Assembly (NCBI RefSeq): GCF_003018115.1
Contig: NZ_CP027457.1
Length of the DNA: 64,000 nucleotides
Strand: one strand, 5' to 3'
Source of the DNA: Escherichia coli
Lineage (GTDB): Bacteria; Pseudomonadota; Gammaproteobacteria; Enterobacterales; Enterobacteriaceae
The stretch's first letter is position 1. Every line of letters starts with the position of its first letter. A model generated the notes under the pieces. The model ran no database searches, was not told the origin of the DNA, and saw only the letters and a program-made list of their open reading frames with translations. Positions 14,986 to 52,068 of this stretch are shown here, one piece after another. Both the position numbers and the translations under genes were made by a program.

Positions 14986-15343
14986 GAGTCAGACAACGAA
15001 GTGAACATCAGGATGATGACACTTCTGCAGGACACACCAGGATGGTGTTTCAGGGAAAGGCTTCTGGATGAAGCGAAGAGGATGACGCAGGACGCGTTAA
15101 AGGACACCTCCAGGATGGAGAATGAGAACCGGTCAGGATGATTCGGTGGGTCAGGAAGGCCAGGGACACTTCAGGATGAAGTATCACATCGGGGTGGTGT
15201 GAGCAGGAAGCAATAGTTCAGGATGAACGATTGGCCGCAAGGCCAGAGGAAAAGTTGTCAAGGATGAGCAGGGAGCAACAAAAGTAGCTGGAATGCTGCG
15301 AAACGAACCGGGAGCGCTGTGAATACAGTGCTCCCTTTTTTTA
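14986..15343 (+). ncRNA. csrB: CsrB small RNA (CsrA-sequestering)
   Basis: ORF-free segment with about 18 CAGGA(T/A)G / AGGA motifs spaced 10-25 nt apart, ending in hairpin GGAGCGCTGTGAATACAGTGCTCCC plus T8 (15311-15343); lies between syd and yqcC. Confidence 0.9.
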
Positions 15344-15387
15344 TTCCTGCTATCCTTCGCGGCAGTTTTTCTTATTGAGGTTGCTTT

Positions 15388-34458: not shown

Positions 34459-35219
34459 GAGTTCCCCGCGCCAGCGGGGATAAACCGAAAATTGGGACGC
34501 TAACTCATGGGTCTGGGTAGAGTTCCCCGCGCCAGCGGGGATAAACCGGGAAAAACGCCTGTGGTTGGGGCTGAACCAGGGAGTTCCCCGCGCCAGCGGG
34601 GATAAACCGTCGGCGCGCTCTCTGTAGAGCGGTTGTGTGATGAGTTCCCCGCGCCAGCGGGGATAAACCGTCGTCGGGTCCGACAGGGGTCGGTTGTTCG
34701 CCGAGTTCCCCGCGCCAGCGGGGATAAACCGGCTTAATAAACGAGGAGAATACCGATGTTTTTAAGTTCCCCGCGCCAGCGGGGATAAACCGTTCTTTTA
34801 ATGGCGTCAGGCCCATTACAGAGCGAGTTCCCCGCGCCAGCGGGGATAAACCGTTTTGACGATTATTCTAAAAGTGAAAATAGCAGAGTTCCCCGCGCCA
34901 GCGGGGATAAACCGCACGCTGGAGTGACCGGGTGGCAGAGCATGACGAGTTCCCCGCGCCAGCGGGGATAAACCGCCATTTCATCATGAACGGCGGAAAT
35001 ATCGTGGGAGTTCCCCGCGCCAGCGGGGATAAACCGGTCAGTTCCCGGTTGATATATATGATGAGCATGAGTTCCCCGCGCCAGCGGGGATAAACCGCGC
35101 AATGGCGCGGCGATTGCTCTCGAGATCAAGTGTTCCCCGCGCCAGCGGGGATAAACCGGGTACAAAAGAGGCCCCATTCTGGCAGGGCTCGAGTTCCCCG
35201 CGCCAGTGGGGATAAACCA
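34459..35219 (+). CRISPR. type I-E CRISPR array, 13 repeats and 12 spacers of 32 nt, repeat GAGTTCCCCGCGCCAGCGGGGATAAACCG
   Basis: Repeats start at 34459, 34520, 34581, 34642, 34703, 34764, 34825, 34886, 34947, 35008, 35069, 35130, 35191 (61-bp period); variants AAG.. at 34764 and GTG.. at 35130; last repeat degenerate (..CCAGTGGGGATAAACCA). Confidence 0.97.
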
Positions 35220-37361: not shown

Positions 37362-38639
37362 TTACTTGCTGCTAGCTATTGCGGGGGCGCTATCAGCAGT
37401 ACGAATTTTTTGGAACAGCAAAAAGGTAAAGACAATCACCATGGCAAGCGCCGCCATTCCCATCAGCCACATATTGCGGTAGGCTTCTGCTGCGGGCAGG
37501 GTGTCTTGCCAGTGGCCGATAATTGGGTAAACGAAGACATCCGGCAGGAATCCAATCACCGAACAAATACCTACCGTGGTGCCCATAATGTAAGACGGTG
37601 TTCTCGCTTCGCCAGGGCAGGCCCAGTACAGCCCGCGTGAGGCGTAACAGGTGAATCCCAGCAGTATAATCAGGCCAATCCCCATCGCGACCGATTGCGG
37701 GTTAGAGTTCGTGACGAGCAGGGCAGTTAACGCCAGCAGGCCGAGTACGGAAAGGATTTGGATCACGCGGGTAGGGGATTTCACTTTACTGTAGGTGGTG
37801 ATAATGCCGCCAAGTGGGCCGCACAGCGCGCGGAAGATTTTGTTGATCACAATCCCCATGTAGCTCGCCGCCACCAGCGACATGCCGTACATTTCGGTCA
37901 GATAGTTGGTGGAGTAACTCAGAATGGCGTAGATGGTGAAGACACCAAAAATCACCATGCTGCAATACCAGGTGGTGCTGATGCGCAAAACGGCCAGGAT
38001 GTCGCTAAGCTGGAATGACTGTTTTTCTTCGTTATTGGCACTGCGCAGGTTGTTGTTATCGCTAACAAAAAACCAGCACAGAATCCCCAACAAGATGTAA
38101 ACCACACTATAGATGATAATGACCGTTTTCAGGCTGGTGCTGTCATCCGGTGCAAAGCGAGAAAAGACCCACATGGTAAACACCGCCAGCGACATTACAC
38201 CGACGCCGCGCAGCCCTTCCATCCAGCCCATAATTTTCCCTTGCTCGCTATGATCGCCAAGCAACGAGGCGGCTTTAATCGACACCGACCACAGCATTAA
38301 AATCGTTGTTATCGCAAAGGCGACCTGAATACAGAGCATTACCCACAGCGGTGGATACGTTGCCATTAACAGACCCAGTAATCCGGTAATGATCATCGCG
38401 GAAGTAATCATTTTGCGGTGTGAAAATTTATCGGCAATAACGCCGCTGGGGGCATAAAGAATAATAGCCGCAATACCAAAGGTACTCATTATTAAACCTA
38501 TCTCGGTATTGCTGAATCCCATAAATTTCGCCATGGGAATTTGATAAATATAACGTAAATAAGCCAGGTCGAAACTAACGCCGCCGCTAAAACTAATTAT
38601 CGCGAGGGTTATCCAACGGCGATATGAGTTGTGTTGCAT
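37362..38639 (-). CDS. yqcE: MFS transporter
   Basis: 425-aa polytopic membrane ORF. Confidence 0.75.
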   Translation of the reverse strand: MQHNSYRRWITLAIISFSGGVSFDLAYLRYIYQIPMAKFMGFSNTEIGLIMSTFGIAAIILYAPSGVIADKFSHRKMITSAMIITGLLGLLMATYPPLWVMLCIQVAFAITTILMLWSVSIKAASLLGDHSEQGKIMGWMEGLRGVGVMSLAVFTMWVFSRFAPDDSTSLKTVIIIYSVVYILLGILCWFFVSDNNNLRSANNEEKQSFQLSDILAVLRISTTWYCSMVIFGVFTIYAILSYSTNYLTEMYGMSLVAASYMGIVINKIFRALCGPLGGIITTYSKVKSPTRVIQILSVLGLLALTALLVTNSNPQSVAMGIGLIILLGFTCYASRGLYWACPGEARTPSYIMGTTVGICSVIGFLPDVFVYPIIGHWQDTLPAAEAYRNMWLMGMAALAMVIVFTFLLFQKIRTADSAPAIASSK

Positions 38640-38663
38640 ATCGTATTCCCATTTGTAATAGAC

Positions 38664-38711
38664 AAAAAAAAGAGAAAAGTAAGCCTCCCTTTCAGGTGGA
38701 TTACTTTTCTC
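38664..38711 (-). terminator. leader intrinsic terminator about 25 nt upstream of the yqcE start (11-bp stem GAGAAAAGTAA / TTACTTTTCTC, 18-nt loop, T8 on minus strand)
   Basis: Perfect inverted repeat 38672-38682 / 38701-38711 with A8 at 38664-38671 on plus strand. Confidence 0.6.
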
Positions 38712-38760
38712 AGGTCTCTAGTAATTGAAATAATAAATAACATGGAAAGCAGAGGTGTTG

Positions 38761-38833
38761 TGTGAGAGTAATCACGCTTCTGCTTTTTAAAATTATTTGA
38801 CAATACGAATATCACACTGTGATTACGATCACA
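38761..38833. promoter_or_regulatory. two CRP-type sites: TGTGAGAGTAATCACG (38761-38776) and perfect TGTGATTACGATCACA (38818-38833); TTGACA -35-like hexamer at 38797-38802
   Basis: Match to CRP consensus TGTGA-N6-TCACA read directly. Confidence 0.6.
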
Positions 38834-38886
38834 TTAGCAGTTATGTCCTTATGCTAAAAATTATCTCCAGTTACCAGAGATAATGA

Positions 38887-38933
38887 GAAAGGTAACTTCC
38901 CTCTCGCGGGGGAAGTTACCTTTCTTTTTTTTT
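38887..38933 (+). terminator. leader intrinsic terminator 24 nt upstream of the ygcW start (15-bp perfect stem GAAAGGTAACTTCCC / GGGAAGTTACCTTTC, 8-nt loop, T9)
   Basis: Read directly; sits between the putative promoter and the ygcW RBS (GGAG 38946-38949). Confidence 0.7.
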
Positions 38934-38957
38934 GCCTTACGGAAATTGGAGCTAACT

Positions 38958-39743
38958 ATGTCAATCGAATCTCTCAATGCGTTCTCAATGGATTTTTTCT
39001 CCCTGAAAGGTAAAACAGCAATTGTTACCGGCGGGAATAGCGGTTTAGGTCAGGCATTTGCAATGGCGTTGGCCAAAGCTGGCGCAAATATTTTTATTCC
39101 AAGTTTTGTCAAAGATAACGGCGAAACAAAGGAAATGATTGAAAAACAGGGTGTTGAAGTGGACTTCATGCAGGTGGATATCACCGCAGAAGGCGCACCG
39201 CAGAAGATTATCGCTGCCTGCTGTGAGCGCTTCGGTACCGTCGATATTCTGGTTAACAATGCCGGTATTTGTAAGCTGAATAAGGTGCTGGATTTCGGTC
39301 GTGCCGACTGGGATCCAATGATTGATGTGAACCTGACCGCCGCATTCGAGTTAAGCTACGAAGCGGCAAAAATTATGATCCCGCAGAAAAGCGGTAAAAT
39401 TATTAATATCTGTTCATTGTTCTCTTACTTAGGTGGACAATGGTCACCTGCTTATTCAGCCACTAAACATGCTCTTGCCGGATTCACCAAATCCTATTGC
39501 GATGAATTAGGTCAATATAATATTCAGGTGAATGGTATTGCCCCGGGATATTACGCTACCGATATCACTCTGGCGACCCGTAGTAATCCAGAAACTAACC
39601 AGCGCGTTCTTGATCATATTCCGGCAAACCGTTGGGGCGATACTCAGGATTTAATGGGCGCAGCCGTATTCCTCGCAAGTCCGGCATCGAATTATGTCAA
39701 CGGGCATTTATTAGTGGTTGATGGCGGTTATTTAGTGCGCTAA
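38958..39743 (+). CDS. ygcW: short-chain dehydrogenase/reductase (SDR)
   Basis: ORF from MSIESLNAFSMDFFSLKGKTAIVTGGNSGLG (Rossmann TGGxSGxG); ORF-track N-terminal extension rejected. Confidence 0.8.
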   Translation: MSIESLNAFSMDFFSLKGKTAIVTGGNSGLGQAFAMALAKAGANIFIPSFVKDNGETKEMIEKQGVEVDFMQVDITAEGAPQKIIAACCERFGTVDILVNNAGICKLNKVLDFGRADWDPMIDVNLTAAFELSYEAAKIMIPQKSGKIINICSLFSYLGGQWSPAYSATKHALAGFTKSYCDELGQYNIQVNGIAPGYYATDITLATRSNPETNQRVLDHIPANRWGDTQDLMGAAVFLASPASNYVNGHLLVVDGGYLVR

Positions 39744-44312: not shown

Positions 44313-44356
44313 CGTGTTGCCGGATGATCCTGCCTACGGTTCTGGCCTGGGGACTT

Positions 44357-44394
44357 GTAGGCCTGATAAGACGCGTCAAGCGTCGCATCAGGCG
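44357..44394. repeat. REP element (TGTAGGCCTGATAAGACGCGTCAAGCGTCGCATCAGGCG) with flanking REP-like halves
   Basis: REP palindrome consensus. Confidence 0.6.
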
Positions 44395-44459
44395 CTGAAT
44401 GTCGGATGTGGCGTGCGGCCTACAAATCAAACCAAATTCAATTGGTTACGATTATCCCG

Positions 44460-45035
44460 TCAAAGTAATTTTTTCGCTAACGTCCAGACCCCGGTATTCG
44501 TGGTGGAAAGCGCCACGACACCCGCGTTAATCGCATTACGCGCATCTTCTTCATCGCACACCAGCCCACCGGCAATCAGCGGTTGGCGGATTTTCTCTGT
44601 CACCCAGCCCAGCACTTTGGGCATACAGCCTGGCAGGATCTCAATACAATCCGGATTCGATTGCGCAACTTGCTTATCAATGTTGTGAAACGAAATTGAA
44701 TCAACAATAAACAGGCGATGAATACAGAAAAAACCTTCCGCTCTTGCCGCTTTCAACATTGAGGCTTTGGTACTGATAATGCCGTCCGCCTCGGTCACCA
44801 GTTTCAAAAACTGAATCACGACTTCTTTATTTGACGCGCCTTCCAGCAAATCAACATGAATAAAAGCATATTTCCCGGCGTTCTTAATCTTTTTAACGAT
44901 ATTACTGATGGTGCAGATATTGCCGTACAACACGGAAATAAACTGGCATTCAGAGTCGATTGCCAGTTGCAGGCTGGCATTATCTTTAACGGCAGCAATC
45001 ACCGGATTCTGGCGGAGCAGGTGTAAGAGGGGCAT
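44460..45035 (-). CDS. ygcP: GlpP-family (glycerol-3-phosphate-responsive-type) antiterminator-like protein
   Basis: 191-aa ORF MPLLHLLRQNPVIAAVKDNASLQLAI... Confidence 0.75.
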   Translation of the reverse strand: MPLLHLLRQNPVIAAVKDNASLQLAIDSECQFISVLYGNICTISNIVKKIKNAGKYAFIHVDLLEGASNKEVVIQFLKLVTEADGIISTKASMLKAARAEGFFCIHRLFIVDSISFHNIDKQVAQSNPDCIEILPGCMPKVLGWVTEKIRQPLIAGGLVCDEEDARNAINAGVVALSTTNTGVWTLAKKLL

Positions 45036-51651: not shown

Positions 51652-51915
51652 ATATTGCCGGATAAATTAAACGCCTCTGTCAGAAATGATGGGGGCGTTT
51701 TTATTTTGCGAGCAGCATTCCTGATTTTAAACGTGAACGCCGCTGGAAGAATTATCAGGTATAGAATGGCGTCGGGTGCTTGAGGCTGTCTGGCGTTAAG
51801 CATTCGCGAGGTTCCAGATGGACAAAAGCCCCAGGCGATATTTCTATCAACCTGAGGCTTACGTTCGAACCCAAACAATTCGAATGTTAGTCTCTTCTTT
51901 GCAGGGAGGCAAGAC

Positions 51916-52068
51916 ATGCTGACAAAATATGCCCTTGTGGCAATCATCGTACTGTGTTGTACAGTACTGGGATTCACGCTGATGGTAGGTGACTCGTTGT
52001 GTGAGTTGAGTATCAGAGAACGTGGTATGGAGTTTAAGGCAGTTCTCGCTTACGAATCGAAGAAGTAG
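51916..52068 (+). CDS. Hok/Gef-family type I toxin (50 aa)
   Basis: [50 protein letters not shown]: one TM helix plus conserved SLCEL...AYES signature; RBS GGGAGG at 51904-51909; a 34-codon upstream ORF (51818-51922) ends overlapping the start codon. Confidence 0.75.

Follow-up and report, generated by a model that had tools for sequence, protein, structure and literature searches.

Twin leader RNAs in the divergent yqcE/ygcW spacer of Escherichia coli suggest CRP-linked antitermination by the GlpP-family protein YgcP

Results

Genomic context of the yqcE/ygcW spacer

The 64,000-nt stretch of Escherichia coli DNA analysed here (hereafter referred to as the window) contains a 318-bp intergenic region separating the divergently transcribed yqcE-ygcE and ygcW-ygcU-ygcS-ygcR-ygcQ operons (Table 1). 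This spacer differs from that of E. coli K-12 MG1655 at 2 of its 318 positions, and window positions are converted to K-12 coordinates by subtracting them from 2939231. Both operons form part of the ygc cluster, which is found in approximately 93% of complete E. coli genomes and whose regulon products comprise a short-chain dehydrogenase/reductase (SDR), a FAD oxidase, a FGGY kinase, electron-transfer flavoproteins and MFS transporters, with no glycerol genes among them. The candidate trans-acting regulator of the cluster, ygcP, lies 5.5 kb from the leaders described below, within the separate ygcNOP unit. Comparison of positions 38300-39300 with 5,426 E. coli genomes yielded at least 99% identity in only 19 of them, with most genomes falling between 95 and 99%; the 76-nt ygcW leader, in turn, is at least 99% identical in 4,497 genomes of the same set, and is hence better conserved than its surroundings.

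Several other elements were recorded in the window. At gathering score, its Rfam matches are limited to CsrB and the sok-type antitoxin RNA sokX. Between queE and ygcE there are two short CRISPR arrays with repeat GAGTTCCCCGCGCCAGCGGGGATAAACCG, in a stretch for which a published Term-seq table lists several 3' ends, and the convergent ygcQ/ygcP spacer is full of REP/BIME-like palindromes (GCCGGATG…, GCCTGATAAGACGCG…CGCATCAGGC).

Table 1. Coordinates of the features of the yqcE/ygcW region and of other elements located in the window
Feature	Position	Strand	Basis and remarks
CsrB small RNA	14986-15345	+	Rfam, 380 bits
CRISPR arrays (two)	34581-34731; 35008-35160		
yqcE-ygcE operon	leftward from 38639 (yqcE ATG 38639)	-	as in the earlier note
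yqcE/ygcW spacer	38640-38957		
Complete yqcE leader (P1, terminator, U8)	38664..38728	-	covariance model R1, 71.6 bits, E 2e-11
yqcE leader terminator	stem 38711 to 38672, T8/U8 38671 to 38664	-	fold and Term-seq
yqcE P1, candidate antiterminator	38700..38725: AUUACU (38725-38720), loop AGAGACCUGAGAAA, AGUAAU (38705-38700)	-	sequence scan
Predicted extended -10, yqcE promoter, TGtTATTTA	38734..38742	-	read from sequence; predicted start ~38727/38726
CRP site 2, one mismatch, TGTGAGAGTAATCACG	38761-38776		pattern match; centre 41.5 nt upstream of predicted yqcE start
CRP site 1, perfect, TGTGATTACGATCACA	38818-38833		pattern match; centre 41.5 nt upstream of predicted ygcW start
Predicted extended -10, ygcW promoter, TGcTAAAAA	38852..38860	+	read from sequence; predicted start ~38867-38869
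Complete ygcW leader (P1, terminator, U9)	38867..38933	+	covariance model R1, 76.9 bits, E 1e-12
ygcW P1, candidate antiterminator	38869..38897: AGUUACC (38869-38875), loop AGAGAUAAUGAGAAA, GGUAACU (38891-38897)	+	fold, pairing, covariation
ygcW leader terminator	stem 38885-38926, T9/U9 38925-38933	+	fold and Term-seq
ygcW-ygcU-ygcS-ygcR-ygcQ operon	rightward from 38958 (ygcW ATG 38958)	+	as in the earlier note
Convergent ygcQ/ygcP spacer	44313-44459		
ygcP, candidate trans-acting antiterminator (191 aa)	44460..45035	-	last gene of ygcN-ygcO-ygcP
sok-type antitoxin RNA (sokX)	51774-51931	+	Rfam, 113 bits

CRP sites and predicted divergent promoters

An earlier note, made from the sequence of this region, described two CRP-type palindromes in the spacer, one of them perfect, and a canonical intrinsic terminator 24-25 nt upstream of each start codon. 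Both palindromes are present, site 1 being the sole perfect match in the 64 kb and site 2 departing from the pattern at one position; across the window as a whole, the CRP pattern with up to two mismatches shows no enrichment (27 found against 25 expected). Site 1 was already published as a prediction in 2007, is bound by CRP in enterotoxigenic E. coli (ETEC) according to ChIP-seq (PMC4287617), and has an in vitro Kd of 1.7 nM in Footprint-seq (PMC12871828). The yqcE-ygcE operon has been inferred to be Crp-activated (PMC8085971), and genomic SELEX found the spacer bound by RNA polymerase holoenzyme.

An extended -10 element conforming to TGnTAnnnT can be read between each CRP site and the leader that follows it, and this element, together with its spacing to the leader, is conserved in the Enterobacterales. 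In all gammaproteobacterial copies of the leader, the centre of a CRP-like site lies 43.5-45.5 nt upstream of a conserved xUUAC anchor, with TGnTAnnnT in between, and Firmicutes copies carry at the equivalent position a TTGACA-17-TATACT promoter instead of the CRP site. This conserved spacing places each CRP site at approximately -41.5 of its own predicted promoter, and hence assigns one site to each operon, so that each unit is predicted to be a class II CRP-dependent promoter. The fixed distance to the CRP site, or to the Firmicutes promoter, likewise positions the first conserved leader hairpin (P1, see below) no more than ~3 nt from the predicted RNA 5' end in all lineages.

Leader terminators coincide with in vivo RNA 3' ends

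Eight terminator-like sites were detected between positions 38000 and 39600, against 1.4 expected, and the two upstream of ygcW and yqcE are strong folds whose U-tracts both end 24 nt before the respective ATG, as the earlier note had held. The ygcW terminator stem comprises 19 pairs including G-U (16 of them perfect) closed by a UCGC loop, with a folding energy of -31 kcal/mol and a z-score of -8.1, none of 200 shuffled sequences folding as well. The yqcE terminator has an 11-bp base and an imperfect top (-20.8 kcal/mol, z = -3.1).

Premature 3' ends, which the earlier note had proposed to map by Term-seq as a check, are on record at both hairpins. The Term-seq data of Adams et al. (2021; PMC7815308) contain a 3' end on the ygcW side at K-12 position 2900311(-), corresponding to window position 38920(+), with 40,640 reads and an intrinsic score of 15.8, and another on the yqcE side at 2900556(+), window position 38675(-), with 1,557 reads and an intrinsic score of 11.4. 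Neither falls within a Rho termination region, both being listed as 'No' for Rho-region significance (PMC7815308). With a stem, a U-tract and in vivo 3' ends at each site, both hairpins are intrinsic, Rho-independent terminators, and it follows that transcripts begin upstream of both and terminate there in LB. Each 3'-end coordinate appears only once in the three-condition Term-seq table (PMC7815308) and is absent from the curated ends of the two remaining conditions, which include glucose minimal medium; this constitutes weak evidence in keeping with CRP dependence. The mapped ends fall within the 3' arms, on the margin of the G+C-rich core and 13 nt (ygcW) or 11 nt (yqcE) before the last U, a displacement that we attribute to exonuclease trimming of the weak A-U stem base as an unproven explanation, and for which early release could be an alternative.

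Both hairpins belong to copies of one conserved leader RNA

The two hairpins share the sequence GAGAAARGUAA…UUACYUUUCU followed by a U-tract, and can be summarized with their relatives by the consensus (C)AGUUACU-AGAG-N3-5-GAGAAAAGUAACUUCC-loop-GGAAGnUGCUUUUCUC-U8. Judged by sequence, they are copies of one ~65-nt leader RNA. Among 80 genomic loci fetched through YgcP homologues, this leader precedes the first gene of each ygc-type operon in Enterobacterales, Vibrio and Firmicutes. In about 35 Enterobacterales species the same element is found upstream of yqcE orthologues, and ygcP is linked to ygcW, ygcU and ygcE. The same linkage occurs in Vibrio hannami, in Halobacillus, Thalassobacillus, Gracilibacillus, Salibacterium, Geosporobacter and Sporomusa, and in a Tissierellia MAG, with protein identities of 45-79%.

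All matches above 42 bits to covariance model R1 in 1.15 Mb of loci are ygc-type leaders, and within the window the model identifies the two leaders only, with no copy upstream of ygcN or ygcP. Rfam searches of the spacer region with permissive E-values, of the whole window and of seven related loci returned no family at gathering score for the leader, the best match in the spacer region reaching 27 bits against a gathering score of 100. When the ygcW hairpin was searched with BLASTN against the 5,426 E. coli genomes, it matched a median of two places per genome, with a maximum of four and none on a plasmid; the two places are most simply explained by the two leaders, or by the palindrome matching itself in reverse, and at that sensitivity the search gave no sign of a dispersed repeat family or of a larger regulon. 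An origin of the hairpins in REP, ERIC or similar repeat elements was considered and rejected, as they are single-locus, gene-oriented and conserved along with the operons.

Some loci depart from this arrangement. In Citrobacter youngae and Klebsiella spallanzanii (L007 16320-16470 and L008 12666-12816, respectively) an insertion of ~130 bp between the terminator of the yqcE leader and the yqcE start codon, which may be an ERIC/IRU-like repeat, leaves the leader undisturbed and puts the terminator ~150 nt from yqcE. In Deltaproteobacteria bacterium Smac51 (L073 10550-10722) a ygcW gene encoding a 70% identical product directly follows ygcP, and the covariance model detects no leader there; the G+C-rich spacer contains GGAGAGUAAC without a U-tract, and may be a divergent or terminator-less variant of the leader. 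A second type of cluster was observed in human gut and fermentation metagenomes (L089, L094, L106 and about 25 further loci within L083-L147), where a divergent MFS gene, whose product is 30% identical to YqcE, faces ygcU-ygcR-ygcQ across twin divergent leaders (GUUACA…GAGAGAAGUAAC), and a YgcP only 42% identical is encoded ~9 kb away.

A conserved hairpin near the predicted 5' end is a candidate competitor of the terminator

The RNA motif common to both leaders overlaps the 5' arm of both terminators, as the earlier note had anticipated, and can form an alternative hairpin, P1. The conserved block nearest the 5' end, xGUUACy, can pair with rGUAACx, located midway along the terminator 5' arm, and this pairing over 6-7 bp encloses the purine loop AGAG…GAGAAA, in which 3-5 variable nucleotides separate the two conserved parts (AGAG-N3-5-GAGAAA). 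Since this middle part of the terminator 5' arm provides the 3' strand of P1, P1 and the full terminator are mutually exclusive.

Conservation of the pairing was assessed by sliding the partner strand. P1 positions pair in 92.6% of cases across 60 leaders, compared with 15-56% for slid partners, and in 89.2% across 90 leaders aligned with a model lacking the P1 pairs, compared with 15-45%; the corresponding values for the terminator helix are 84.6% and 53-66%. Compensatory changes accompany this conservation. One P1 pair is A-U in the yqcE leader where the ygcW copy has G-C, and this change from G-C to A-U, for which G-U intermediates exist, occurs in yqcE leaders of the E. coli type and independently in Firmicutes, Sporomusa among them. 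At a second P1 pair U-A is replaced by C-G, and the terminator partner of the same 3' base shifts in step, column 32 of the alignment covarying with column 12, its partner in P1, as well as with column 68, its partner in the terminator. Further independent P1 variants in the Firmicutes include AUUAC/GUAAU, GUUGC/GCGAC (Bacillus sp. DNRA2) and G-U pairs, and the terminator helix shows compensatory changes of its own, such as GAGGAAAG/CUUUCCUC and GAGAUAG/CUAUCUC. Independent covariation events in P1 are few because GUUAC/GUAAC is so conserved, and we regard pairing and covariation together as good, but not overwhelming, evidence in the aligned sequences for an antiterminator layout.

Folding predictions define the balance between the two structures. 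The nascent ygcW RNA adopts P1 as its minimum-energy structure (-6.7 kcal/mol), and the complete leader folds into the terminator at -34.2 kcal/mol, compared with -15.6 kcal/mol when P1 is enforced; for yqcE the equivalent values are -1.4, -21.0 and -8.8 kcal/mol. With P1 contributing -1 to -7 kcal/mol against -21 to -34 kcal/mol for the terminator, termination is the expected default and P1 would need outside help to prevail.

These features bear on the possibility that a transcription factor uses the palindromes as DNA operators, their resemblance to terminators being incidental. Both are indeed inverted repeats, and they flank a CRP-controlled divergent promoter region. Each palindrome nonetheless follows the orientation of its own gene, with a T-tract confined to the sense strand; G-U pairs and changes in a single strand maintain the RNA helices and not the DNA symmetry; RNA 3' ends map at the palindromes; and no DNA-binding regulator is conserved in ygc clusters. 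We thus consider a role as DNA operators extremely unlikely.

The leader co-occurs with a PF04309 gene

The earlier note had read the two terminators as evidence of antitermination, with the product of ygcP, taken to be a GlpP-family antiterminator-like protein, as the candidate effector. The family assignment is borne out: YgcP is a full-length match to PF04309 (G3P_antiterm; E 1.6e-62) and is homologous to the Listeria GlpP structure 3KTS (E 1e-27) as well as to the GlpP structure 1VKF. NCBIfam has no model for YgcP, and a literature search returned few mentions of ygcP and none on its regulation.

The association between leader and protein was evaluated on 12 clusters selected on long contigs solely by homology to YgcU, and thus not via YgcP. 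All four clusters with a PF04309 gene within 10 kb have the leader (30-58 bits), heading the operon or a transporter gene, and none of the eight clusters without PF04309 shows a match above 17.7 bits, even with filters off. The association has a one-sided Fisher p of 0.002, a value to be read with the kinship between two of the four positives (L153 and L154) in mind, which makes the effective sample smaller than 12. Some PF04309-less loci, such as L158, have short flanks. The homologous pathways that lack YgcP are exactly those that lack the leader, which argues for YgcP as the partner of the leader rather than as an enzyme of the pathway. A second search independent of YgcP, scanning metagenomes for the RNA pattern, returned 67 loci, of which 44 match the covariance model, all of them beside ygc-type genes, with YgcP present in all 12 loci whose flanks reach far enough. 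The remaining 23, with neither a covariance-model match nor ygc genes, were discarded as chance matches to the pattern. In the Firmicutes, the PF04309 gene immediately adjoins the leader. Taken with the shared leader and P1, this tracking of the leader by a ygcP-type gene supports, at the level of sequence comparison, the antitermination reading of the earlier note.

The clusters retrieved via YgcU (L149-L160) also provide information on the pathway itself. Their SDR/FAD-oxidase/ETF/FGGY-kinase genes often adjoin genes for BCCT or OpuAC transporters and MttB-family methyltransferases, which may hint at the substrate class. The PF04309-less clusters lie near sigma-54 activators, or MarR or LacI regulators, which shows that the catabolic module has swapped regulators.

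Three further explanations can be weighed against this distribution. Under the first, the hairpins would be constitutive attenuators, small RNA genes derived from 5' UTRs or stabilizing 5' structures, with fixed read-through, regulation by CRP only and no control by YgcP. In favour of this, the terminated ygcW leader is, by its read count, fairly abundant in LB, and many E. coli 5' UTR fragments do act as small RNAs (PMC7815308); this explanation leaves unaccounted for, however, the conserved alternative hairpin with its compensatory changes, the strict co-occurrence with PF04309, and the presence of one element on two operons with different downstream genes, and we deem it unlikely.

A riboswitch, with the antiterminator stabilized by direct binding of a metabolite to the GA-rich P1 region and YgcP acting as a pathway enzyme or having no role, appears less likely still. 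A terminator competing with a 5' hairpin is the layout of an expression platform, and the phosphate-binding barrel of PF04309 proteins is related in fold to enzymes. Outside the terminator, however, the leader offers only the 6-7 bp hairpin and a purine loop of 14-18 nt, with no room for a complex aptamer; no Rfam family matches it; an experimentally defined GlpP target has a similar element; and the leader occurs only where PF04309 is encoded, homologous catabolic clusters lacking both, as expected of a regulator and its target and not of an enzyme.

Antitermination might, lastly, be real and be exerted by a small RNA, by an RNA-binding protein other than YgcP or through the translation of an unrecognised leader peptide, the role of YgcP being putative and its gene in E. 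coli lying 5.5 kb off in the leaderless ygcNOP unit. Against this, only the PF04309 gene tracks the presence of the leader, which it directly adjoins in Firmicutes, and the length of the leader does not allow for a leader peptide, so that we give an effector other than YgcP very little credence.

Discussion

The arrangement that emerges from this analysis is a spacer made of what would be two back-to-back copies of one regulatory unit, each consisting of a CRP site, an extended -10 element and a leader of ~65 nt. By default, the leader transcript would end at the strong intrinsic terminator located 24 nt before the start codon. P1, formed from the first nucleotides of the leader, would compete with this terminator, and we infer that YgcP, by binding to P1 and its GA-rich loop as the RNA is being made, clamps this structure. 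For this YgcP would need to be loaded with an inducer, probably a phosphorylated intermediate of the pathway, by analogy with glycerol-3-phosphate for GlpP, and transcription would then continue past the terminators into yqcE-ygcE and ygcW-ygcU-ygcS-ygcR-ygcQ. Twin CRP-dependent promoter and leader units with YgcP-mediated antitermination are in our view the best explanation for the data, and probably the correct one. The CRP site and the RNA 3' ends at both hairpins are already published; the shared leader RNA, the antiterminator design, the cross-phylum spread and the coupling to YgcP appear undescribed.

A broader proposal, which we favour by a narrower measure of confidence, holds that the ygc leaders are an uncatalogued cross-phylum class of cis-regulatory RNA, defined by a 5' hairpin with an AGAG…GAGAAA loop and targeted by the YgcP subfamily of GlpP proteins. 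Under this proposal, the RNA, the protein and the catabolic module (SDR, FAD oxidase and FGGY kinase) would have passed as a set between Firmicutes and Proteobacteria, and the metabolite sensed by YgcP would not be glycerol-3-phosphate.

The leader RNA, together with the protein that probably acts on it, provides a handle on the regulation and the substrate of the ygc cluster, a set of 10 genes without assigned function, and the function of the cluster would become experimentally approachable if the proposed mechanism holds. GlpP-type antitermination would then extend from the Firmicutes to the Proteobacteria, and in E. coli K-12 Bgl would be joined by a second system of antitermination through a protein, one not recognised before. 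The leader, with its many natural variants, would also offer a well-delimited RNA target for a protein family about whose mode of RNA recognition little is understood. GlpP and the glpD promoter have already been adopted in synthetic biology (PMC9604022), and the ygc system would add a compact protein-plus-RNA switch to that toolbox.

Comparison with known systems

With the expression platforms of transcriptional riboswitches, the ygc leaders share mutually exclusive terminator and antiterminator helices and a decision taken co-transcriptionally. They differ from riboswitches in having no conserved structure of aptamer size and no Rfam match, and in that their presence depends on a protein gene.

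The antiterminators BglG, SacY and LicT act on the RAT elements of E. coli bgl and of B. subtilis sac and lic, where the protein stabilizes a weak antiterminator overlapping the 5' arm of a terminator. Compared on the basis of established knowledge, these systems and the one proposed here obey the same logic of a weak antiterminator stabilized by a protein. The proteins are nevertheless of different build (a CAT-PRD fold as opposed to the PF04309 barrel) and the RNA elements unrelated, and control is exerted by PTS phosphorylation in the former and, as proposed, by a small-molecule ligand in ygc.

The closest parallel is B. subtilis GlpP, which acts on the glpD, glpFK and glpTQ leaders in a glycerol-3-phosphate-dependent manner. 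Both systems include a PF04309 protein, and in both an intrinsic terminator is located in the 5' UTR right after the promoter, the ygc promoters being predicted ones. A GA-rich element with an apparent short closing helix abuts or overlaps the 5' arm of the terminator in each case (GAGAUGAGGAGAGA in B. subtilis glpD, AGAG…GAGAAA in ygc); in the 5' UTR of glpD, a known GlpP target, GGUC-CUGAGAUGAGGAGA-GACC is located directly at the start of the terminator. The leaders of glycerol-3-phosphate oxidase-like, glpK and glpQ-like genes beside canonical glpP also contain an AGAG…GAGA element, within apparent short closing helices of unrelated sequence, and match R1 with E-values of 0.004-0.16. An unconstrained test for such helices in the leaders of canonical GlpP systems gave a non-significant combined p of 0.17, and a P1-type hairpin across the whole GlpP family is therefore a lead only. 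The ygc system, known here from its sequence, differs from B. subtilis GlpP in its Gram-negative host, in its two divergent leaders within one spacer, and in a regulon unrelated to glycerol; because the regulated genes are not glp genes, its ligand is probably not glycerol-3-phosphate. The sequence of the ygc leader (GUUAC…GAGAAAAGUAAC) is also far more conserved than that of the glp leaders. In both systems catabolite control is layered on top of the leader, through CcpA in B. subtilis glp and through CRP in ygc.
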